The notes under the pieces were generated by a model, which was given only the letters and a program-made list of their open reading frames with translations, was not told where the DNA came from and did no database searches. DNA of 64,000 bases. Origin: Escherichia coli (GTDB lineage Bacteria > Pseudomonadota > Gammaproteobacteria > Enterobacterales > Enterobacteriaceae). The stretch is taken from assembly GCF_029227855.1 (NCBI RefSeq), contig NZ_CP074356.1; one strand, given 5' to 3'. The stretch's first letter is position 1. The number at the start of each line of letters is the position of its first letter. Position numbers and translations under genes: made by a program. Below are positions 4,209-50,222 of the stretch, piece after piece.

Positions 4209-5228
4209 ATGAAAAGCATTTTAATTGAAAAACCGAATCAACTGGCAATTATCGAACGCGAAATACCTACCCCGTCAGCGGGTGAAGTACGAGTAAAAGT
4301 GAAACTTGCCGGAATTTGTGGTTCAGATAGCCATATTTATCGTGGGCATAATCCTTTTGCGAAATATCCGCGCGTCATTGGACATGAATTTTTTGGCGTC
4401 ATTGATGCAGTGGGTGAAGGCGTGGAAAGCGCCAGAGTCGGTGAACGCGTTGCTGTCGATCCGGTGGTCAGCTGTGGGCATTGCTATCCGTGCTCTATAG
4501 GTAAGCCGAACGTTTGTACAACACTGGCTGTATTAGGTGTGCACGCTGACGGTGGTTTCAGTGAATATGCCGTGGTTCCGGCAAAAAATGCGTGGAAAAT
4601 TCCTGAAGCAGTGGCCGATCAATATGCGGTGATGATCGAACCTTTTACCATTGCGGCGAACGTAACCGGTCATGGTCAACCGACTGAAAATGATACCGTT
4701 CTGGTTTACGGTGCCGGTCCAATCGGCCTGACGATCGTTCAGGTATTAAAAGGCGTCTATAACGTTAAAAATGTGATTGTTGCCGATCGCATTGATGAAC
4801 GACTGGAAAAAGCGAAAGAGAGCGGGGCTGACTGGGCGATTAATAACAGCCAGACACCGCTTGGCGAGATTTTCGCTGAAAAAGGCATAAAGCCGACATT
4901 AATTATCGATGCGGCTTGTCATCCTTCTATCCTGAAAGAGGCCGTAATTCTGGCTTCTCCAGCGGCACGTATTGTATTGATGGGCTTCTCCAGTGAACCG
5001 TCTGAAGTGATTCAGCAAGGAATTACCGGAAAAGAACTCTCTATTTTCTCTTCACGCTTAAATGCAAATAAATTCCCGGTCGTTATCGACTGGTTAAGTA
5101 AAGGGTTAATTAAACCAGAAAAATTAATTACCCATACGTTTGATTTCCAGCATGTTGCTGATGCCATTAGTTTATTTGAACAGGATCAAAAACATTGCTG
5201 CAAAGTCTTACTCACTTTTTCTGAATAA
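4209..5228 (+). CDS. rspB: zinc-dependent dehydrogenase RspB
   Basis: 339-aa ORF from ATG 4209 (MKSILIEKPNQLAIIERE...), GHEFFG zinc-ADH motif and GAGPIG Rossmann motif. Confidence 0.95.
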   Translation: MKSILIEKPNQLAIIEREIPTPSAGEVRVKVKLAGICGSDSHIYRGHNPFAKYPRVIGHEFFGVIDAVGEGVESARVGERVAVDPVVSCGHCYPCSIGKPNVCTTLAVLGVHADGGFSEYAVVPAKNAWKIPEAVADQYAVMIEPFTIAANVTGHGQPTENDTVLVYGAGPIGLTIVQVLKGVYNVKNVIVADRIDERLEKAKESGADWAINNSQTPLGEIFAEKGIKPTLIIDAACHPSILKEAVILASPAARIVLMGFSSEPSEVIQQGITGKELSIFSSRLNANKFPVVIDWLSKGLIKPEKLITHTFDFQHVADAISLFEQDQKHCCKVLLTFSE

Positions 5229-41368: not shown

Positions 41369-44300
41369 ATGGGTAAAGGCAGCAGTAAGGGGCATACCCC
41401 GCGCGAAGCGAAGGACAACCTGAAGTCCACGCAGCTGCTGAGTGTGATCGATGCCATCAGCGAAGGGCCGGTTGAAGGTCCGGTGGATGGATTAAAAAGC
41501 GTGCTGCTGAACAGTACGCCGGTGCTGGACAGTGAGGGGAATACCAATATATCCGGCGTCACGGTGGTGTTCCGGGCCGGTGAGCAGGAGCAGACTCCGC
41601 CGGAGGGATTTGAATCCTCCGGTTCCGAGACGGTGCTGGGTACGGAAGTGAAATATGACACGCCGATCACCCGCACCATCACGTCGGCAAACATCGACCG
41701 TCTGCGCTTTACCTTCGGTGTGCAGGCACTGGTGGAAACCACCTCAAAGGGGGACAGGAATCCATCGGAAGTCCGCCTGCTGGTTCAGATACAACGTAAC
41801 GGTGGCTGGGTGACGGAAAAAGACATCACCATTAAGGGTAAAACCACCTCGCAGTATCTGGCCTCAGTGGTGGTGGATAACCTGCCGCCGCGCCCGTTTA
41901 ATATCCGGATGCGCAGGATGACGCCGGACAGCACCACAGACCAGCTGCAGAACAAAACGCTCTGGTCGTCATACACCGAAATCATCGATGTGAAACAGTG
42001 CTACCCGAACACGGCACTGGTCGGCGTGCAGGTGGACTCGGAGCAGTTCGGCAGCCAGCAGGTGAGCCGTAATTATCATCTGCGAGGGCGTATTCTGCAG
42101 GTGCCGTCGAACTATAACCCGCAGACGCGGCAATACAGCGGTATCTGGGACGGGACGTTTAAACCGGCATACAGCAACAACATGGCCTGGTGTCTGTGGG
42201 ATATGCTGACCCATCCGCGCTACGGCATGGGGAAGCGTCTCGGTGCGGCGGATGTGGACAAATGGGCGCTGTATGTCATCGGCCAGAATTGCGACCAGTC
42301 GGTGCCGGATGGCTTTGGTGGCACGGAGCCGCGCATCACCTGTAATGCCTGGCTGACCACGCAGCGCAAGGCGTGGGATGTGCTCAGTGATTTCTGCTCG
42401 GCGATGCGCTGTATGCCGGTATGGAACGGGCAGACGCTGACGTTCGTGCAGGACCGGCCATCGGATAAGGTGTGGACCTATAACCGCAGTAATGTGGTGA
42501 TGCCGGATGATGGCGCGCCGTTCCGCTACAGCTTCAGCGCCCTGAAGGACCGTCATAATGCCGTTGAGGTGAACTGGATTGACCCGAATAACGGCTGGGA
42601 GACGGCGACAGAGCTTGTGGAGGACACGCAGGCCATTGCCCGTTACGGTCGTAACGTCACGAAGATGGATGCCTTTGGCTGTACCAGCCGGGGGCAGGCA
42701 CACCGCGCCGGGCTGTGGCTGATTAAAACAGAACTGCTGGAAACGCAGACCGTGGATTTCAGCGTCGGCGCAGAAGGGCTTCGCCATGTACCGGGCGATG
42801 TTATTGAAATCTGTGATGATGACTATGCCGGTATCAGCACCGGTGGTCGTGTGCTGGCGGTGAACAGCCAGACCCGGACGCTGACGCTCGACCGTGAAAT
42901 CACGCTGCCATCCTCCGGTACCACGCTGATAAGCCTGGTTGACGGAAGTGGCAATCCGGTCAGCGTGGAGGTTCAGTCCGTCACCGACGGCGTGAAGGTA
43001 AAAGTGAGCCGTGTTCCTGACGGTGTTGCTGAATACAGCGTATGGGGGCTGAAGCTGCCGACGCTGCGCCAGCGACTGTTCCGCTGCGTGAGTATCCGTG
43101 AGAACGACGACGGCACGTATGCCATCACCGCCGTGCAGCATGTGCCGGAAAAAGAGGCCATCGTGGATAACGGGGCGCACTTTGACGGCGAACAGAGTGG
43201 CACGGTGAATGGTGTCACGCCGCCAGCGGTGCAGCACCTGACCGCAGAAGTCACTGCAGACAGCGGGGAATATCAGGTGCTGGCGCGCTGGGATACGCCG
43301 AAGGTGGTGAAGGGTGTGAGCTTTATGCTTCGCCTGACCGTGGCAGCGGATGACGGCAGTGAGCGGCTGGTCAGCACGGCCCGGACGACGGAAACCACAT
43401 ACCGCTTCAGGCAGCTGGCGCTGGGAAGCTACAGGCTGACAGTCCGGGCGGCAAATGCCTGGGGGCAGCAGGGCGATCCTGCATCGGTATCGTTCCGGAT
43501 TGCCGCACCGGCAGCGCCGTCGCGGATTGAGCTGACGCCGGGCTATTTTCAGATAACCGCCACGCCCCATCTTGCCGTTTATGATCCGACGGTACAGTTT
43601 GAGTTCTGGTTCTCGGAAAAGCGGATTGCGGATATCAGGCAGGTTGAAACTACAGCCCGCTATCTTGGCACGGCGCTGTACTGGATAGCTGCCAGTATCA
43701 ATATCAAACCGGGCCATGATTATTATTTTTACATCCGCAGTGTGAACACCGTTGGCAAATCGGCATTTGTGGAGGCTGTTGGCCAGCCGAGTGATGATGC
43801 ATCCGGCTATCTGGATTTTTTCAAAGGCGAGATAGGGAAAAGCCATCTGGCTCAGGAGCTGTGGACGCAGATTGATAACGGTCAGCTTGCGCCTGACCTG
43901 GCTGAAATCAGGACGTCCATTACGGATGTCAGCAATGAAATCACGCAGACCGTCAATAAGAAACTGGAAGACCAGAGTGCGGCAATCCAGCAGATACAGA
44001 AGGTTCAGGTTGATACAAATAATAACCTGAACAGCATGTGGGCTGTGAAGCTGCAGCAGATGCAGGACGGACGCCTTTATATCGCGGGTATTGGTGCCGG
44101 TATTGAGAATACCCCTGACGGTATGCAGAGTCAGGTGCTGCTGGCGGCGGACAGGATTGCGATGATTAATCCTGCGAATGGCAACACAAAACCGATGTTT
44201 GTTGGTCAGGGCGATCAGATATTCATGAACGAAGTGTTCCTGAAATATCTGACGGCTCCCACCATTACCAGCGGCGGTAATCCTCCGGCATTTTCCCTGA

Positions 44301-44848
44301 CACCGGACGGGCGGCTGACGGCGAAAAATGCCGATATTAGCGGTAACGTGAATGCGAACTCCGGGACGCTCAACAACGTCACGATTAACGAGAACTGCCG
44401 GGTTCTGGGAAAACTGTCCGCGAACCAGATTGAAGGCGATCTCGTTAAAACAGTGGGCAAAGCTTTCCCCCGGGACTCCCGTGCACCGGAACGGTGGCCA
44501 TCAGGGACCATTACCGTCAGGGTTTATGACGATCAGCCGTTTGACCGGCAGATTGTTATTCCGGCGGTGGCATTCAGCGGCGCTAAACATGAGAGAGAGC
44601 ATACTGATATTTACTCCTCATGCCGTCTGATAGTGCGGAAAAACGGTGCTGAAATTTATAACCGTACCGCGCTGGATAATACGCTGATTTACAGTGGCGT
44701 TATTGATATGCCTGCCGGTCACGGTCACATGACGCTGGAGTTTTCGGTGTCAGCATGGCTGGTAAATGACTGGTATCCCACAGCAAGTATCAGCGATCTG
44801 CTGGTTGTGGTGATGAAGAAAGCCACCGCAGGCATCAGTATCAGCTGA
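41369..44848 (+). CDS. host specificity protein J (central tail fibre)
   Basis: 1159-aa ORF in lambda J position. Confidence 0.9.
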
Positions 44849-44915: not shown

Positions 44916-45515
44916 ATGCGTAAAGTTTGTGCCGCCATTTTTTCCGCAGCCATTTGTCTGGCCGTATCCGGTGCGCCTGCATGGGCATCTGAACATCAGT
45001 CCACGCTGAGCGCGGGGTATCTTCATGCCTCGACGAACGTTCCCGGCAGCGATGATCTGAACGGGATTAACGTGAAATACCGTTATGAGTTTACGGACAC
45101 ACTGGGGATGGTGACGTCATTCAGCTATGCAGGAGACAAGAATCGCCAGCTTACCCGTTACAGCGATACCCGCTGGCATGAAGATTCCGTGCGTAACCGC
45201 TGGTTCAGCGTGATGGTGGGGCCGTCTGTGCGCGTGAATGAATGGTTCAGCGCGTATGCGATGGCGGGTATGGCTTACAGCCGTGTTTCGACTTTCTCCG
45301 GAGATTATATCCGCGTAACTGACAACAAGGGGAAAACGCACGATGTGCTGACCGGAAGTGATGACGGTCGCCACAGCGACACGTCTCTGGCATGGGGGGC
45401 TGGCGTGCAGTTTAACCCGACCGAATCCGTGGCCATTGATATTGCTTATGAAGGTTCCGGCAGTGGCGACTGGCGCACTGACGGTTTCATCGTTGGTGTC
45501 GGTTATAAATTCTGA
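44916..45515 (+). CDS. lom: Lom/Ail family outer-membrane beta-barrel protein
   Basis: 199-aa ORF with signal peptide, ends GVGYKF (aromatic C-terminal residue typical of OM barrels), SD gagagg. Confidence 0.9.
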
Positions 45516-45541
45516 TTAGCCAGGTAACACAGTGTTATGAC

Positions 45542-45568
45542 AGCCCGCCGGTTCAGGCGGGCTTTTTT
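45542..45568 (+). terminator. rho-independent terminator after lom
   Basis: Hairpin agcccgcc...ggcgggct followed by TTTTTT. Confidence 0.6.
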
Positions 45569-46250
45569 GTGCACAGAAAACCCCCAGCTAGGCTGGGGGT
45601 TCCGGAAAGCTTTCAGCTTTGAGCCAGTTATTAAAACCCCTTTTGATTTGTTAAAACACTTTGCGGTCTGGCAACTGCAAGTGTCAAACAAGAAATCAAA
45701 AGGGGGTCCCAATGGGGAACGAAAAGAGCTTAGCGCACACCCGATGGAACTGTAAATATCACATAGTTTTTGCGCCAAAATACCGAAGACAGGTGTTCTA
45801 CAGAGAGAAGCGTAGAGCAATAGGCAGTATTTTGAGAAAGCTGTGTGAGTGGAAAAGCGTACGGATTCTGGAAGCTGAATGCTGTGCAGATCATATCCAT
45901 ATGCTTGTGGAGATCCCGCCCAAAATGAGCGTATCCGGGTTTATGGGATATCTGAAAGGGAAAAGCAGTCTGATGCTTTACGAGCAGTTTGGTGATTTGA
46001 AATTCAAATACAGGAACAGGGAGTTCTGGTGCAGAGGGTACTACGTCGATACAGTGGGTAAGAACACGGCGAAGATACAGGATTACATAAAGCACCAGCT
46101 TGAAGAGGATAAAATGGGAGAGCAGTTATCGATTCCCTATCCGGGCAGCCCGTTTACGGGCCGTAAGTAACGAAGTTGGATGCAAATGTCAGATCGTGTG
46201 CGCCTGTTAGGGCGCGGCTGGTAAGAGAGCCTTATAGGCGCATTTGAAAA
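45569..46250 (+). mobile_element. IS200-type insertion sequence (IS200/IS605 family)
   Basis: Y1 (HUH) transposase gene flanked by short noncoding ends; perfect palindrome cccccagctaggctggggg at 45581-45599 near the left end; boundaries approximate. Confidence 0.7.
45712..46170 (+). CDS. tnpA: IS200-type transposase TnpA
   Basis: 152-aa product MGNEKSLAHTRWNCKYHIVFAPKYRRQVFY... with HUH-like HMLVEIPP and catalytic Tyr region. Confidence 0.85.
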   Translation: MGNEKSLAHTRWNCKYHIVFAPKYRRQVFYREKRRAIGSILRKLCEWKSVRILEAECCADHIHMLVEIPPKMSVSGFMGYLKGKSSLMLYEQFGDLKFKYRNREFWCRGYYVDTVGKNTAKIQDYIKHQLEEDKMGEQLSIPYPGSPFTGRK

Positions 46251-46290
46251 ACCTCCGGCTATGCCGGAGGATATTTATTGTGGAGTGGAT

Positions 46291-48696
46291 ATGGCAGCAG
46301 TAAAAATCTCAGGTGTGCTGAAAGATGGTGCGGGAAAACCAATACAGAACTGCACTATTCAACTGAAGGCAAAGCGTAACAGCACCACGGTACTGGTGAA
46401 CACGGTGGCTTCTGAAAATCCGGATGAAGCCGGACGTTACAGCATGGATGTTGAGTATGGCCAGTACAGCGTCACCCTGCTGGTTGAAGGTTTTCCGCCT
46501 TCACATGCCGGGACCATTACCGTCTATGAAGGCTCCAGACCAGGTACGCTGAATGATTTTCTCGGTGCCATGACGGAAGATGATGTCATGCCGGAGGCAT
46601 TGCGTCGTTTTGAGGCAATGGTGGAAGAAGTGGCACGCAACGCCGAAGCCGCCTCTCAGAGCGCAGCGGCGGCAAAGAAATCCGAAACTGCAGCGGCATC
46701 ATCAAAGAACGCGGCGAAAACCTCAGAAACGAATGCAGCTAATAGTGCACAGGCGGCAGCGACCTCAAAGACTGCATCGGCAAACTCCGCGACAGCAGCC
46801 AAAAAATCAGAAACCAACGCGAAAAATAGCGAGACAGCCGCAAAGACGAGCGAAACCAACGCAAAGTCCAGCCAGACGGCAGCGAAAACCAGCGAAACGA
46901 ATGCCAAAGCCAGTGAAACTGCGGCAAAAAACAGCCAGGTTGCAGCAGCCCAAAGCGAGAGCGCGGCAGCCGGTTCTGCGACTTCAGCAGCTGGATCAGC
47001 AACTGCTGCGGCTAACAGCCAGAAAGCTGCGAAGACGAGTGAAACTAACGCAAAGTCCAGCCAGACGGCAGCGAAGACCAGCGAAACGAATGCCAAAGCC
47101 AGTGAAACTGCGGCGAAAAGCAGTCAGGATGCAGCGGCCCAAAGCGAGAGTGCCGCAGCCAGTTCTGCAAGCGCGGCGGCTGCTTCTGCCACTGCATCAG
47201 CCAACAGTCAAAAAGCAGCAAAAACCAGTGAAACCAACGCAAAGGCGAGCGAGACTGCGGCGGCGAACTCGGCGCAAGCATCGGCAGCAAGCCAGACAGC
47301 AGCTAAAGCAAGTGAAGACGCAGCCAGAGAGTATGCAAGCCAGGCAGCGGAGCCGTATAAATATGTCTTACAGCCACTGCCTGATGTGTGGATACCGTTT
47401 AACGATTCACTGGATATGATTACGGGCTTTTCGCCATCATATAAAAAAATTGTTATTGGCGACGATGAAATAACAATGCCTGGCGACAAGATTGTAAAGT
47501 TTAAACGCGCATCGAAAGCAACTTACATTAATAAATCTGGTGTGCTGACAGAGGCTGCCATTGACGAGCCACGATTTGAACGTGATGGCCTGCTTATTGA
47601 GGGGCAAAGAACTAACCTGCTAATCAATTCAACAAATCCGACTAAATGGAACAAGTCGTCAAATATGATCTTAAGTGCATCAGGTGTAGATGATTTCGGA
47701 TTCCAGTACGCAAAATTTACATTAAAACCAGAAATGGTAGGGCAAATTTCAGCGATTAACATAGTAACCGTTTCCGGCAGTAAAGGTTTTGATGTAACAG
47801 GCGGAGAAAAGTATGTAACCATATCATGCAGGGTGCAAAGTGGCACTCCAAATTTAAGATGCCGATTACGATTTGAAAACTATGATGGTTCTACCTACAC
47901 ATTCTTAGGTGACGCTTACTTAAATACGACAGATTTATCTATTGATAAGACGGGTGGTGCCGCTAATCGCATTACTGCAAGGGCTGTTAAAGATGAAGCA
48001 AGCAAATGGATCTTTTTTGAGGCGACAATTAAGGCACTTGATACAGAAAATATGATAGGTGGAATGGTTCAGTATGCCCCGGCAAAAGGAGTGGGCACTG
48101 GCGCGGATGATTATATTTATATTGCGACCCCTCAAGTTGAAGGTGGGGCGTGCGCTTCATCGTTTATTATAACAGGCGCATCCCCTGTAACACGCGCCAG
48201 CGATATTGTAACGGTCCCCATTTCTCTAAATTGGTGCAATCCCGCTATTAGTTCATTAGCAGAAGTTAATACCAATTGGGATGAATCGCCAAACAAAGAA
48301 GGTAGCGCACGTATTCTTAATATTTCCACTACGGGAGATACAACTGAAATTGCAGATGAAAGTTATATGTATTTGGGGTATACATCTTTGGGAGCACGCG
48401 CAATCATTACAAATGGTAAAGGCACTAAAATAGAATATAAAAGCGTTATAGAACGACCAGAGAGAAAAAGCATTATCGGCTTTAGATTCACAGAAAGTCG
48501 AGAATTGTGTGTTGTGGTTAACGGTAATATTGGTGCTAAGGTGGTTTCTCCTTATAAAAAACACAAATATACAGGAGGCTTCATTAATATTGGTGGTCAA
48601 TCATCATCCGGCAACCGTCACCTATTTGGACACGTTCGAAATCTGCGTATTTGGCACAAGGCATTGACTGATGCTCAGATGGGGGAGTCAATCTAA
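46291..48696 (+). CDS. stf: side tail fibre protein (Stf-like) with repeat-rich shaft and distinct C-terminal receptor-binding region
   Basis: N-terminus MAAVKISGVLKDGAGKPIQNCTIQLKAKRNSTT... matches conserved Stf N-terminal domain; Ala/Lys/Thr/Ser/Glu-rich repeats; AT-richer C-terminal third. Confidence 0.85.
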   Translation: MAAVKISGVLKDGAGKPIQNCTIQLKAKRNSTTVLVNTVASENPDEAGRYSMDVEYGQYSVTLLVEGFPPSHAGTITVYEGSRPGTLNDFLGAMTEDDVMPEALRRFEAMVEEVARNAEAASQSAAAAKKSETAAASSKNAAKTSETNAANSAQAAATSKTASANSATAAKKSETNAKNSETAAKTSETNAKSSQTAAKTSETNAKASETAAKNSQVAAAQSESAAAGSATSAAGSATAAANSQKAAKTSETNAKSSQTAAKTSETNAKASETAAKSSQDAAAQSESAAASSASAAAASATASANSQKAAKTSETNAKASETAAANSAQASAASQTAAKASEDAAREYASQAAEPYKYVLQPLPDVWIPFNDSLDMITGFSPSYKKIVIGDDEITMPGDKIVKFKRASKATYINKSGVLTEAAIDEPRFERDGLLIEGQRTNLLINSTNPTKWNKSSNMILSASGVDDFGFQYAKFTLKPEMVGQISAINIVTVSGSKGFDVTGGEKYVTISCRVQSGTPNLRCRLRFENYDGSTYTFLGDAYLNTTDLSIDKTGGAANRITARAVKDEASKWIFFEATIKALDTENMIGGMVQYAPAKGVGTGADDYIYIATPQVEGGACASSFIITGASPVTRASDIVTVPISLNWCNPAISSLAEVNTNWDESPNKEGSARILNISTTGDTTEIADESYMYLGYTSLGARAIITNGKGTKIEYKSVIERPERKSIIGFRFTESRELCVVVNGNIGAKVVSPYKKHKYTGGFINIGGQSSSGNRHLFGHVRNLRIWHKALTDAQMGESI
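46650..47300 (+). repeat. tandem and near-identical direct repeats inside stf (about 110-bp copies at 46861-46975 and 47050-47164, 189-bp period)
   Basis: Repeated blocks gcaaagtccagccagacggcagcgaa(a/g)accagcgaaacgaatgccaaagccagtgaaactgcggc...; many spurious ORFs on both strands. Confidence 0.75.
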
Positions 48697-48977
48697 TGAA
48701 AGATTTAACACTCAAATTTGCCGACAGGGCCGATTTTTCGGCCTTTATGGGAAGTATTGGCTATTATAATGACGAGTCGATGCAGGATGATATTCTGATT
48801 GATGTGATAGGTAACGTGTACAAAGAAACCGGAGAGCTGACTGAAGATGGCGAACCGGTATGTGTTAAGGAAGATGGATATTTTGTAAACGTGCGCATCA
48901 TTAAGGATACGCAAATATCGTCATTATTCGATGAATACGCGGTTGCTGTTGAGCATCAACTTCGTGGCTGGATGTGA
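48696..48977 (+). CDS. hypothetical protein downstream of stf
   Basis: 93-aa acidic ORF, ATG overlaps stf stop. Confidence 0.5.
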   Translation: MKDLTLKFADRADFSAFMGSIGYYNDESMQDDILIDVIGNVYKETGELTEDGEPVCVKEDGYFVNVRIIKDTQISSLFDEYAVAVEHQLRGWM

Positions 48978-48986
48978 GGTAGAGAA

Positions 48987-49691
48987 ATGGCTACATCAAC
49001 AGTAATTCCGGGAGACATCACCACGCTGAAGGGAGATGTTAGTAAAGCAAAGGAAGATATTTCCTCTATTAACGGAAAAGTATCAACGCTTCAGACTGAT
49101 ATGGCCAGTGCAAAGCAGGATATCAGCACCAGATACACAAAAACTGAAGTTGATAATAAGCTGAAAAACAAAGTGGAAGTGAACGATCTGGAAAGTGGTC
49201 GTTATGGCGGAGATTTTTACCCGCTGACTGGCCGTGAAGCGTTTTATTTATGGGGATTGGGCACAACTACAGCGGCGGCAAATCTTTATCTTAATCCTGA
49301 CCCTGCAATTTCGTCTGTGCTGCGGTCAACATCGTCTATCCGCTATAAACATTCAGTAGAGACGATAGATTCAGAGCACGCCGATCTCATTTTCAGGATG
49401 CGCCCTGTGTGGTACAGGTCGCAATGCGAAAATGACAGGCGTGACTGGGGATTCTATGGATTGATTGCCGAGGAAGTTGGAGAAATTGCCCCTCAGTTTG
49501 TTCACTGGCGACCAGCCAACGAAGATGATGCACCGGAAACCATTTCCAGCAATGGCCTTGTTGCCGAAGGTGTAATGTACGAACGTCTGGTTGTTCCACT
49601 GATTCACCATATCCAGAAGCTGACTGAAAGAGTTGATGAACTTGAGTCAGAATTAAAGTTGTTATCCGTTTCCCGAAGCGATATCGGATAA
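48987..49691 (+). CDS. tail-fibre-associated protein with N-terminal coiled coil and C-terminal intramolecular-chaperone (peptidase S74-like) region
   Basis: C-terminal segment IRYKHSVETIDSEHADLIFRMRPVWYRSQCENDRRDWGFYGLIAEEVGEIAPQFV resembles the autoproteolytic chaperone domain of tailspike/fibre proteins (pattern recall only). Confidence 0.55.
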   Translation: MATSTVIPGDITTLKGDVSKAKEDISSINGKVSTLQTDMASAKQDISTRYTKTEVDNKLKNKVEVNDLESGRYGGDFYPLTGREAFYLWGLGTTTAAANLYLNPDPAISSVLRSTSSIRYKHSVETIDSEHADLIFRMRPVWYRSQCENDRRDWGFYGLIAEEVGEIAPQFVHWRPANEDDAPETISSNGLVAEGVMYERLVVPLIHHIQKLTERVDELESELKLLSVSRSDIG

Positions 49692-49701
49692 AGGAGGCGT
49701 A

Positions 49702-49995
49702 ATGGATATAACACCTTTCCTTCATGCACTTTGTGCTGTGGCTGCGCAGGTACTGGTTGGTCTTTTTACCGGAAACTGGGCTTACGGGGCGATAGCTGGT
49801 TGTACGTTCTTCATTGCGCGTGAACATACCCAGGCAGAATATCGCTGGATTGAAATGTTCGGGCATGGCAAGCGTATGAATATGCCGTGGTGGGGCGGTT
49901 TTGATCCGCGTGCGTGGGATGTGGCAAGCCTGATGGATTTTGCTGTGCCGGTGGTGGCGTGTCTGCTGGTCTGGCTGTTGGTTAATCGTGGGTGA
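49702..49995 (+). CDS. hypothetical membrane protein
   Basis: 97-aa ORF with strong SD aaggagg; hydrophobic segments at both ends. Confidence 0.5.
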   Translation: MDITPFLHALCAVAAQVLVGLFTGNWAYGAIAGCTFFIAREHTQAEYRWIEMFGHGKRMNMPWWGGFDPRAWDVASLMDFAVPVVACLLVWLLVNRG

Positions 49996-50005
49996 AAAAA
50001 GGTGA

Positions 50006-50125
50006 GCTGTATATGCAACGGAGGAAGAAACCTCGTTGCGGGAAGCCTTGAAGAAGTATCGGGTGTTGCTGAACCGTGTTGATACGTCAACTGCACAGGA
50101 TATTGAATGGCCAGCACTGCCGTAG
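50006..50125 (+). pseudogene. 3' remnant of a tail fibre assembly gene (tfa)
   Basis: Frame without start codon encoding ...[36 protein letters not shown], resembling the remembered conserved Tfa C-terminus. Confidence 0.55.
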
Positions 50126-50222
50126 GGTAAAACATATAAATTCTATAATTAGATGTATCTTTCCATTTACGGCAAGGAAGGGGGCTTGGAAGACGTAAGG
50201 CATCTCACACCGAGATTATTTT

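Follow-up and report, generated by a model that had tools for sequence, protein, structure and literature searches.

The question raised by this locus is what a pair of near-identical direct repeats inside a phage tail fibre gene represents: coding DNA for a stalk that changes in length, a scar left by the exchange of distal modules, or an error of assembly. The window (the whole stretch of DNA analysed, 64,000 nt of Escherichia coli contig NZ_CP074356.1) carries the repeat within a lambdoid prophage that occupies the Qin site of E. coli. A sequence-only reading had interpreted the repeat as a source of recombinational length variation in a fibre shaft and of assembly errors. The repeat is real and was in the main correctly interpreted, and it is commonplace in such fibres and has been catalogued before. 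Very probably, it encodes the stalk of a lambda Stf-type fibre, with units gained and lost by out-of-register recombination.

Identity and Surroundings of the Fibre Gene

The gene and its parts are arranged as follows.

46291-48696, + strand: side tail fibre gene (lambda Stf type), 801 aa, ATG at 46291, beginning MAAVKISG...
46291-46575, + strand: N-terminal collar domain, aa 1 to about 95, matching PDB 9e7m/9mgh
46606-47361, + strand: heptad array (predicted proximal alpha-helical coiled-coil shaft), 36 uninterrupted heptads, aa 106-357, RFEAMVE ... QAAEPYK
47362-48696, + strand: distal fibre part, aa 358-801, not lambda-like

In a Pfam scan, the stf ORF matches PF08400 phage_tail_N (E=5.5e-67, 224 bits against a cut-off of 26.6), and the phrog_1419 'tail protein' profile covers aa 2-801 with its positions 1-793 of 793 (E=0, 1363 bits). 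The 94-aa 'Tail fiber protein' chain of PDB 9e7m/9mgh, which is the lambda Stf collar, aligns to aa 3-95 (E=8.6e-49). The gene order is J - lom - stf, with a J-like ORF at 41369-44848 and Ail/Lom at 44916-45515 (E=6.6e-120) followed by stf, and related phages keep this order. Collar, position and heptad shaft together assign the gene, on sequence grounds, to the lambda Stf-type side tail fibre family (PF08400), and the array occupies the place of the lambda Stf proximal coiled coil with the same heptad motif, which bears out the earlier placement of the repeat in a tail fibre shaft. The start at 46291 matches the start in phages 2G7b and IdasGreatGrand; the program-made ORF start at 46261 falls within an IS200-family element, which lies 17 nt upstream of the stf start codon in the window but not in relatives of the 2G7b/IdasGreatGrand type. 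The ORFs 3' of stf are a 93-aa ORF and an S74-domain ORF (phrog_1361, of unknown function, and an S74-domain protein).

In Ur-lambda, the side tail fibre is a homotrimer, the collar domain anchors the fibre at the tail tube/tip junction, and twelve collar domains around this junction give four fibres (PMC12617516). Residues 102-393 of Ur-lambda Stf form the proximal coiled coil of the trimeric fibre, a trimeric bundle by cryo-EM, in an assignment that past the first ~120 residues is mostly AlphaFold3 fitted into tomograms (PMC12617516). That this part of lambda-type side fibres is a coiled coil has already been published. The window fibre resembles lambda Stf in its gene position, in its homologous collar, in the heptad array directly after the collar, and in an Ala(2)/Ser(5) pattern with common motifs such as AAKTSETNA. 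It differs in that the lambda array has roughly 37-41 heptads vs 36 here, with a different higher-order repeat, and in that the distal halves are unrelated, the window fibre being without the hinge, the gp37-like distal fibre and the Tfa chaperone gene. Strict orthology to lambda Stf over the whole protein was considered and rejected, since homology to lambda stops at 46643, at the array start, the distal part carries a GTA_spike_fiber domain and no Tfa lies downstream. This NCBIfam domain spans aa 435-636, and the C-terminal end of the fibre shows a weak match to a concanavalin-A-like lectin (Laminin_G_3).

The closest relatives are lambdoid phage fibres of PHROG 1419, comprising two-unit forms (2G7b, Tritos, HannyBb, PhiR49_1 and PhiR63_1) and one one-unit form (IdasGreatGrand), with 92-98% DNA identity over the collar and the whole array. 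IdasGreatGrand has most of the window distal domain too, whereas 2G7b and others diverge past 47616. StfR of the cryptic E. coli K-12 prophage Rac, a 'prophage tail fiber N-terminal domain-containing protein', belongs to the same N-terminal domain family, its gene being about 84-86% identical in DNA across the first ~370 nt; similarity stops at the start of the heptad array, and array length and distal parts differ.

The Heptad Array as a Shaft

The degenerate Ala/Lys/Thr/Ser/Glu repeats that had been described around the two copies are real, and together they make up the array of heptads of the form A-A-K/A-x-S-E/A/Q-T. Heptad position 2 is Ala in 31 of the 36 heptads and position 5 is Ser in 32, so that conserved positions are spaced 3 and 4 apart, the spacing of a coiled coil, without helix breakers. 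The register runs unbroken for 252 aa, a stretch that is free of Pro and has Gly in two heptads only. The lambda orf-401 array has the same register and motif (Ala in 32/41, Ser in 26/41). The a/d positions are not the hydrophobic Leu/Ile/Val positions of a canonical coiled coil; the core consists of Ala and Ser, a small-residue core that is atypical for coiled coils and is found in lambda Stf as well. By homology to lambda, the array is inferred to form a trimeric alpha-helical coiled coil with Ala/Ser at the core. A monomer model from AlphaFold2 (AF2) shows helix at aa 96-232 and 238-352 (mean pLDDT 79.7, about 85-94 across most of the array) and bends back at the Gly-containing heptads, aa 233-237. 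This fold-back may be an artefact of the monomer or a real flexible point of the shaft, and it is uninformative on the trimer.

The alternative that these Ala/Ser/Thr-rich repeats form a disordered or beta-structured spacer is very unlikely. It draws on the Ala/Ser core, on the lack of a Pfam family over the region, and on a PDB sequence search with the repeat alone, in which most matches were spurious hits to RNA polymerase II CTD heptads, a sign of low complexity. The strict 3-4 spacing of small residues over a stretch free of Pro, the helix predicted by AF2 and the cryo-EM trimeric bundle in the homologous lambda region (PMC12617516) stand against it. The same PDB sequence search returned no solved structure of the repeat itself; its meaningful matches were short stretches of depolymerases from Klebsiella phages and, weakly (E=0.015), 8hqz_d, a chain of an L-shaped tail fibre. 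Among the Klebsiella phage capsule depolymerases (PDB 7lzj, 7vyv and 7vz3), aa 130-172 of 7lzj carry the same heptads (E about 4e-4), indicating that fibres and spikes from different phages have the motif in common; the shared stretch extends over only about 6 heptads, the remainder being an unrelated beta-helix enzyme. PF03406 Phage_fiber_2, 'phage tail fibre repeat', which we took to be a possible home for the repeats, was rejected as their family because a Pfam scan of aa 106-357 with E up to 10 gave only the tail end of PF08400.

Geometry of the 189-nt Repeat

Within the array, the higher-order repeat comprises the following elements.

46837-47025, + strand: 189-nt unit 1, 9 heptads AAKTSET NAKSSQT AAKTSET NAKASET AAKNSQV AAAQSES AAAGSAT SAAGSAT AAANSQK
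47026-47214, + strand: 189-nt unit 2, 9 heptads AAKTSET NAKSSQT AAKTSET NAKASET AAKSSQD AAAQSES AAASSAS AAAASAT ASANSQK
46861-46975, + strand: near-identical core, copy 1, 106/115 identical to copy 2
47050-47164, + strand: near-identical core, copy 2, 106/115 identical to copy 1
47215-47262, + strand: partial third copy, beginning only, AAKTSETNAKASETAA; the 189-nt periodicity fades here

The two cores sit within the tandem units, each of which has 9 heptads or 63 aa and would account for about 9.4 nm of a ~37 nm stalk. Near-identity of the cores and the 189-bp period were upheld; the statement that the copies differ at only a few positions was slightly generous, as there are 9 differences. 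For a background match rate of 0.5, the binomial probability of at least 106 matches in 115 is ~2e-22. In Tandem Repeats Finder, 46828-47262 is an array of period 189 with 2.3 copies, 83% matches, no indels and a score of 597, within which periods of 21 and 42 nt are nested, and a separate repeat search gave a 189-nt pair at 46786-46974 and 46975-47163 (83%). A member of repeat family D1 at 47203-47262 has 77% identity to the reference copy. In a self-comparison, which the earlier reading had proposed as one check, the best 115-nt window has 107 matches at lag 189 and at most 79 at other multiples of 21 up to 399, so that the repeat stands well above the 21-nt background; in-frame lags that are not a multiple of 21 give a mean identity of 33%.

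In heptad register, unit 1 and unit 2 are identical at 160 of 189 positions (85%), with 29 differing positions and, at the codon level, 18 synonymous and 7 non-synonymous differences. The 3' third of the units is far more diverged than the 5' two-thirds, which, at this level of identity, implies that the duplication is not recent. The longest exact run common to both units is 38 nt, suggesting that recombination between them is only infrequent. Programmed hypervariation by a diversity-generating retroelement or a similar system, with one copy as template repeat and the other as variable repeat, has hardly any probability. Tail fibre genes are frequent targets of such systems, which work with a pair of similar repeats about 100 nt long; here, however, the differences show no adenine specificity (unit 1 has A at 10 of the 29) and occur across all base pairs, and both copies lie in one ORF, in the structural shaft rather than in the receptor-binding tip. 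A Pfam scan of six ORFs from lom to the recombinase (44916-50813) found no reverse transcriptase.

Copy Number among Relatives

The comparison of repeat number across related prophages, suggested earlier as a check, gives one or two units in related phages. Phage IdasGreatGrand is without exactly one unit (189 nt, 63 aa), in six protein clusters the anchors lie 196 aa apart instead of 259 (one unit fewer), and at least two E. coli chromosomes, those of strains CB209 and MSB1_4I, have a span of 912 nt instead of 1101. Strain CB209 carries one- and two-unit alleles together in one chromosome. The one- and two-unit forms have identical flanks, and the hybrid junctions of the one-unit form vary (AAKSSQD.AAAESES, AAKNSQN.AAAESES and AAKNSQD.AAAQSES), which points to separate events. 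These alleles, exactly 189 nt shorter and unlike at their junctions, together with further variants of -1, -2 and -4 heptads, support the recombinational length variation that had been predicted from the repeats. The one-unit form may be the older state or may result from a deletion. Among length-variant clusters with the same C-terminal junction, 10 of 15 are off by whole heptads (-7, -14, -28 and -63 aa). The other five are out of heptad register, including P0044 (-4 aa, with 8 member sequences on 7 contigs), so there are exceptions to the register. Among more distant relatives, Lambda_2E9 and 4C10 are shorter by 315 nt (15 heptads) and mEp460 is longer by 399 nt (19 heptads). Across 42 clusters, both units show the same polymorphisms (unit positions 32 N/S, 35 V/D, 39 Q/E and 4 T/A), a pattern that exchange of sequence between the units would produce. 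The 25 best matches to a synthetic 1290-nt query included no three-unit allele, all being two-unit spans matched in two pieces; the ranking of these matches gives no strict exclusion of three-unit alleles.

The same comparison bears on the assembly. Among complete E. coli assemblies, 966 records contain at least 80% of the region; of the full-length matches listed from these, nearly all have the two-unit 1101-nt span, and seven independent phage genomes show the same two-unit layout. That the second copy is an artefact, whether a false duplication or a collapsed longer array, therefore has a negligible probability. Tandem repeats can mislead assemblers, and some database relatives are odd in length or carry an obvious frameshift patch (P0117). 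The agreement of the spans, the 29 differences between units and an intact reading frame argue against an artefact here, and an exact run of 38 nt is shorter than usual assembly k-mers and reads. The expectation that the repeats are a likely source of assembly errors was not borne out, and the repeat gives no cause to distrust the assembly at this place. Where contig ends truncate database homologues, the break falls at 470-630 aa, past the repeat. In strain GN02461, a span longer by 18 nt was considered as a repeat error and rejected: it is a clean in-frame 18-nt tandem duplication at the shaft end, in which EYASQA occurs twice.

Proposed Unit Exchange and Joining of Distal Modules

In the proposed mechanism, heptad-coding stretches would have recombined out of register through their homology, by unequal crossing-over or slippage, to produce the tandem units, and units would be added or dropped by the same route. 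As exchange in 21-nt-periodic DNA adds or removes whole heptads, the coiled-coil register would be kept. One unit would alter the stalk length by 63 residues, shifting the reach of the distal receptor-binding domain from the tail tip, and the same repetitive DNA may join the conserved N-terminal anchor to alternative distal modules. A literature search for heptad or unequal-crossing accounts of lambdoid fibres gave nothing specific to this repeat.

Similarity to other phages breaks at several points. It stops at 46820 and resumes at 47373 for 2E9/4C10, stops at 46917 and resumes at 47218 for PhiR49_2, and stops at 47255 for PhiR47_1; for 5 of 8 phages compared, the breaks lie inside the array or at its edges, implying that the array doubles as a swap zone for distal modules. 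Such breaks lend some credence to the rather doubtful reading that the array is mainly a homologous 'linker' for module swaps, with length change incidental and the duplication a neutral scar of one exchange. The diverged 3' third of the units would be expected if they came from two fibre alleles, the distal part is common to the lateral fibres of unrelated E. coli and Salmonella siphophages (gene positions 1077-1952, 83-87% identity), and the heavy predominance of the two-unit form speaks against frequent length switching. However, the precise one-unit alleles with unlike junctions and identical flanks indicate unit gain and loss independent of module swaps. A linker function is also compatible with out-of-register recombination and does not exclude it.

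It is improbable that the 9-heptad unit serves as a length 'dial', tuning the reach of the distal domain to the host surface layer (O-antigen or capsule). If it did, the shaft would be a contingency-type locus, with frequent unit switching in phage populations, and not a passive spacer. The coexistence of one- and two-unit alleles with identical flanks and the polymorphisms common to the units are consistent with such a dial, and the strong predominance of the two-unit form is contrary to it.

Hundreds of complete E. coli genomes and several phages carry the gene and its repeat with hardly any change, and the repeat has little import beyond correct annotation. As a natural register-preserving spot for length change and for the joining of distal modules, the array is relevant to the engineering of chimeric lambda Stf. 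According to a chimeric Stf paper in Nature (2024), the N-terminal part of Stf can be fused to foreign distal parts.

The tandem repeat in the fibre shaft

The shaft-coding part of the side tail fibre gene (stf) is a coding array with a 21-nt period (46606-47361), on which a higher-order tandem repeat of 189 nt is superimposed. The near-identical direct repeats proposed in a sequence-only reading are real, as 46861-46975 matches 47050-47164 at 106 of 115 bases (P of at least 106 matches ~2e-22 at a generous background match rate of 0.5), and self-comparison places the period of 189 clearly above the 21-nt-periodic background. As this background is itself periodic, lags were compared over 46606-47361: identity is 44-50% at multiples of 21 nt, 33% at other in-frame lags and 61% at lag 189; the best-scoring 115-nt segment reaches 107 matches at that lag and does not exceed 79 at any other multiple of 21. 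Tandem Repeats Finder delimits the array at 46828-47262 (period 189, 2.3 copies, 83% matches, no indels, score 597), with nested periods of 21 and 42 nt, and a second repeat search recovered the 189-nt pair together with repeat families at 21-nt-multiple spacings. In the register of the reading frame, the units are:

46837-47025 (+), unit 1, 189 nt
47026-47214 (+), unit 2, 189 nt

The two units are identical at 160 of 189 positions, the longest exact run common to both being 38 nt. Divergence is concentrated in the last third, the first two-thirds being nearly identical, and the codon differences comprise 18 synonymous and 7 non-synonymous changes. Two other ORFs run through the repeat:

46580-47419 (+), alternative-frame ORF, 279 aa
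46656-47096 (-), antisense ORF, 146 aa

Both look incidental to a low-complexity codon composition without stops; the lambda record has a comparable antisense ORF, orf206b, annotated within orf-401.

The fibre gene and its genomic setting

The repeats lie inside a 2.4-kb ORF on the plus strand, in the following setting:

41369-44848, lambda J-like central fibre gene, upstream of stf
44916-45515, Ail/Lom gene between the J-like gene and stf (Pfam, E=6.6e-120)
45542-45563, lom terminator hairpin
45572-46273, IS200/IS605-family element between the hairpin and the stf start
45661-46170 (+), tnpA ORF (Y1_Tnp, E=5.3e-38)
46291-48696 (+), stf, 801 aa
48987-49691 (+), 234-aa ORF downstream of stf with a Peptidase_S74 intramolecular-chaperone domain
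50223-50813 (-), PinQ-like serine recombinase (Resolvase and HTH_7), just beyond the fibre genes

The stf product has a Pfam phage_tail_N domain at residues 1-132 (E=5.5e-67), aligns over residues 3-95 with the 94-residue "Tail fiber protein" chain of PDB 9e7m/9mgh (E=8.6e-49), and is covered over its full length by PHROG 1419 ("tail protein"). Three features assign the protein to the lambda Stf/"prophage tail fiber N-terminal domain" family: the N-terminal domain, the position of the gene and the heptad shaft; both gene and array are homologous to lambda Stf. The protein is not a full-length lambda Stf orthologue, as its distal half is different and so are the genes downstream. Translation starts at ATG 46291 (MAAVKISG...), the same start as in related phages; the start at 46261 from mechanical ORF calling falls within the inserted IS element. 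This element ends 17 nt upstream of the ATG, where the lom-stf gap in related phages is only ~64 nt, and E. coli 24A16CRGN010 has the same insertion. The insertion could block late transcription into stf, and therefore the fibre copy in the window may not be expressed.

The window is collinear (98.9%) with an E. coli chromosome whose prophage adjoins pinQ, ydfK, ynfT and truncated ydfJ. By collinearity with the E. coli comparison locus L002, the neighbours of the recombinase out to ~54694 are ydfK, ynfT, truncated ydfJ and ydfI, which places the prophage at the Qin site. L002 has a residual fragment of a tail fibre assembly gene beside the recombinase. The match of the S74 ORF to PHROG 3299 is confined to the C-terminal end of that profile (positions 1147-1384 of 1385); the N-terminal part of this long fibre family is also similar to the stf heptads. 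In phage 2G7b the homologous ORF has 345 aa, and the ORF here could encode a short second fibre or else be a remnant.

Heptad structure of the shaft

The array encodes 36 heptads in unbroken register, from RFEAMVE (aa 106) to QAAEPYK (aa 357), and one 189-nt unit corresponds to 9 heptads, or 63 residues. Heptad position 2 is Ala in 31 of 36 and position 5 is Ser in 32 of 36; the first residue is Ala or Asn, the third Lys or Ala and the seventh mostly Thr. Judged from the sequence, the 3- and 4-residue spacing of the conserved residues is an a/d coiled-coil pattern with small residues in the core. A Pfam scan gave no family covering the array itself. In lambda, orf-401 encodes the N-terminal part of Stf, and its ~37-41 heptads keep this register and pattern, with motifs such as AAKTSETNA common to both arrays. 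The structural meaning of the array is already published for lambda: Ur-lambda Stf is a trimer by cryo-EM/cryo-ET, in which residues 1-91 form a collar domain, 92-101 a flexible linker, 102-393 a proximal coiled coil and 394-422 a hinge; the trimeric bundle adjoining the collar was resolved (PMC12617516). The array in the window would likewise form a trimeric coiled-coil stalk. With a helical rise of ~0.1485 nm per residue, the computed length is ~9.4 nm for one unit and ~37 nm for the whole array, and the reach of the distal domain would shift by ~9 nm per unit.

An AlphaFold2 monomer model of aa 94-380 (mean pLDDT 79.7; most 10-residue blocks 85-94) is helical over aa 96-232 and 238-352. The sole break, at aa 233-237 (pLDDT <50), where the monomer turns back, falls in the only Gly-containing heptads of the shaft, AAAGSAT SAAGSAT of unit 1 (46978-47019, aa 230-243), whose unit 2 counterpart is AAASSAS AAAASAT. 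The break may come from modelling a single chain, or the stalk may be flexible at this point.

Variation in unit number

The proposed recombinational length variation is supported by comparison across related phages and prophages, among which the unit count varies and natural alleles differ by exactly one unit or whole heptads. In phage IdasGreatGrand, flanks and distal domain are the same as in the window, but exactly 63 residues are missing (DNA span, 912 vs 1101 nt). The distance between the anchors LRRFE and LPDVW was measured in the 120 best protein-cluster representatives; 42 clusters share the window value of 259 aa, and six have 196 aa (-63). Variants of -7, -14 and -28 aa occur in one or two clusters each, and out-of-register variants (-4, -12, -30, -41 and -68 aa) are few and mostly singletons, that of -4 aa having 8 member sequences on 7 contigs. 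Among complete E. coli genomes, CB209 and MSB1_4I carry one-unit alleles and EFF60 a -4-heptad allele; the CB209 chromosome (NZ_CM144249.1) has a two-unit allele (1526210-1527310) and a one-unit allele (1328643-1329554) in different prophages. Among distant relatives, the arrays of Lambda_2E9 and 4C10 are 15 heptads shorter and that of mEp460 is 19 heptads longer.

Alleles with two units predominate strongly. Of the records from complete E. coli assemblies, 966 contain at least 80% of the 1101-nt region, and the span is exactly 1101 nt in all 60 best-ranked rows and in 8 of 9 full-length single-piece rows from a spread sample of these records. No three-unit allele was found among the 25 best matches to a synthetic 1290-nt query. 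The best match over the repeat region is 99.3%, and the sequence is nearly unchanged in many annotated genomes; the repeat, for which the main earlier interpretation holds, is an ordinary, already catalogued feature.

Units would be gained or lost via out-of-register homologous recombination, in which the heptad register would be kept automatically because the DNA period is 21 nt. Exact runs between the units are 26-38 nt, close to the minimum length generally given for efficient RecA-dependent recombination in E. coli. Gain and loss events should therefore be infrequent, in agreement with the strong dominance of one allele. Hybrid junctions differ among one-unit alleles, as would be expected of separate crossovers within the similar core; at its 3′ end the IdasGreatGrand unit resembles unit 2, its 5′ part being unassignable as the units are too alike there. 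Across the 42 two-unit clusters, both units carry the polymorphisms N/S 32, V/D 35, Q/E 39 and T/A 4 (unit positions), which would fit sequence exchange between units, recurrent mutation also being possible. This unit-level polymorphism is a minor descriptive addition.

The array as a junction zone

Mosaic breakpoints also lie in the array. The similarity of relatives to the window has varied endpoints, within the array or at its edge:

lambda: ends at 46643, no resumption
Lambda_2E9 and 4C10: ends at 46820, resumes at 47373
PhiR49_2: ends at 46917, resumes at 47218
PhiR47_1: ends at 47255, no resumption
2G7b: ends at 47616, past the array, no resumption

The distal half (aa 358-801) has a GTA_spike_fiber domain (NCBIfam) and weakly matches a lectin-like domain, and it recurs at 83-87% DNA identity in lateral fibre genes from unrelated siphophages of E. 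coli and Salmonella. Therefore, the array joins a conserved anchor to interchangeable distal modules, an arrangement matched by the known engineerability of Stf chimeras (PMC11338833).

Assembly of the repeat region

The suggestion that the repeats are a likely source of assembly errors was not supported, since the units differ at 29 of 189 positions with at most 38 exact bases in common, complete genomes and independent phage genomes show the same layout, and homologues cut at contig ends stop well past the repeat. Most of the database cluster representatives P0001-P0120 are "partial" proteins of 470-630 aa ending at contig edges; breaks in draft assemblies thus tend to fall in the distal half and not in the 189-nt repeat, a probable reason being that the distal half occurs in several prophages per genome (matching places per genome: median 2, up to 13). 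The span in GN02461 (comparison locus L008), longer by 18 nt, was considered as a repeat error and rejected, being a clean in-frame 18-nt tandem duplication (EYASQA twice) at L008 ~4440-4470 (window ~47340), by which the shaft gains 6 residues, not in heptad register, at its C-terminal end. NCBI's pipeline splits this gene into two pseudogene fragments despite an open frame in the region of the duplication.
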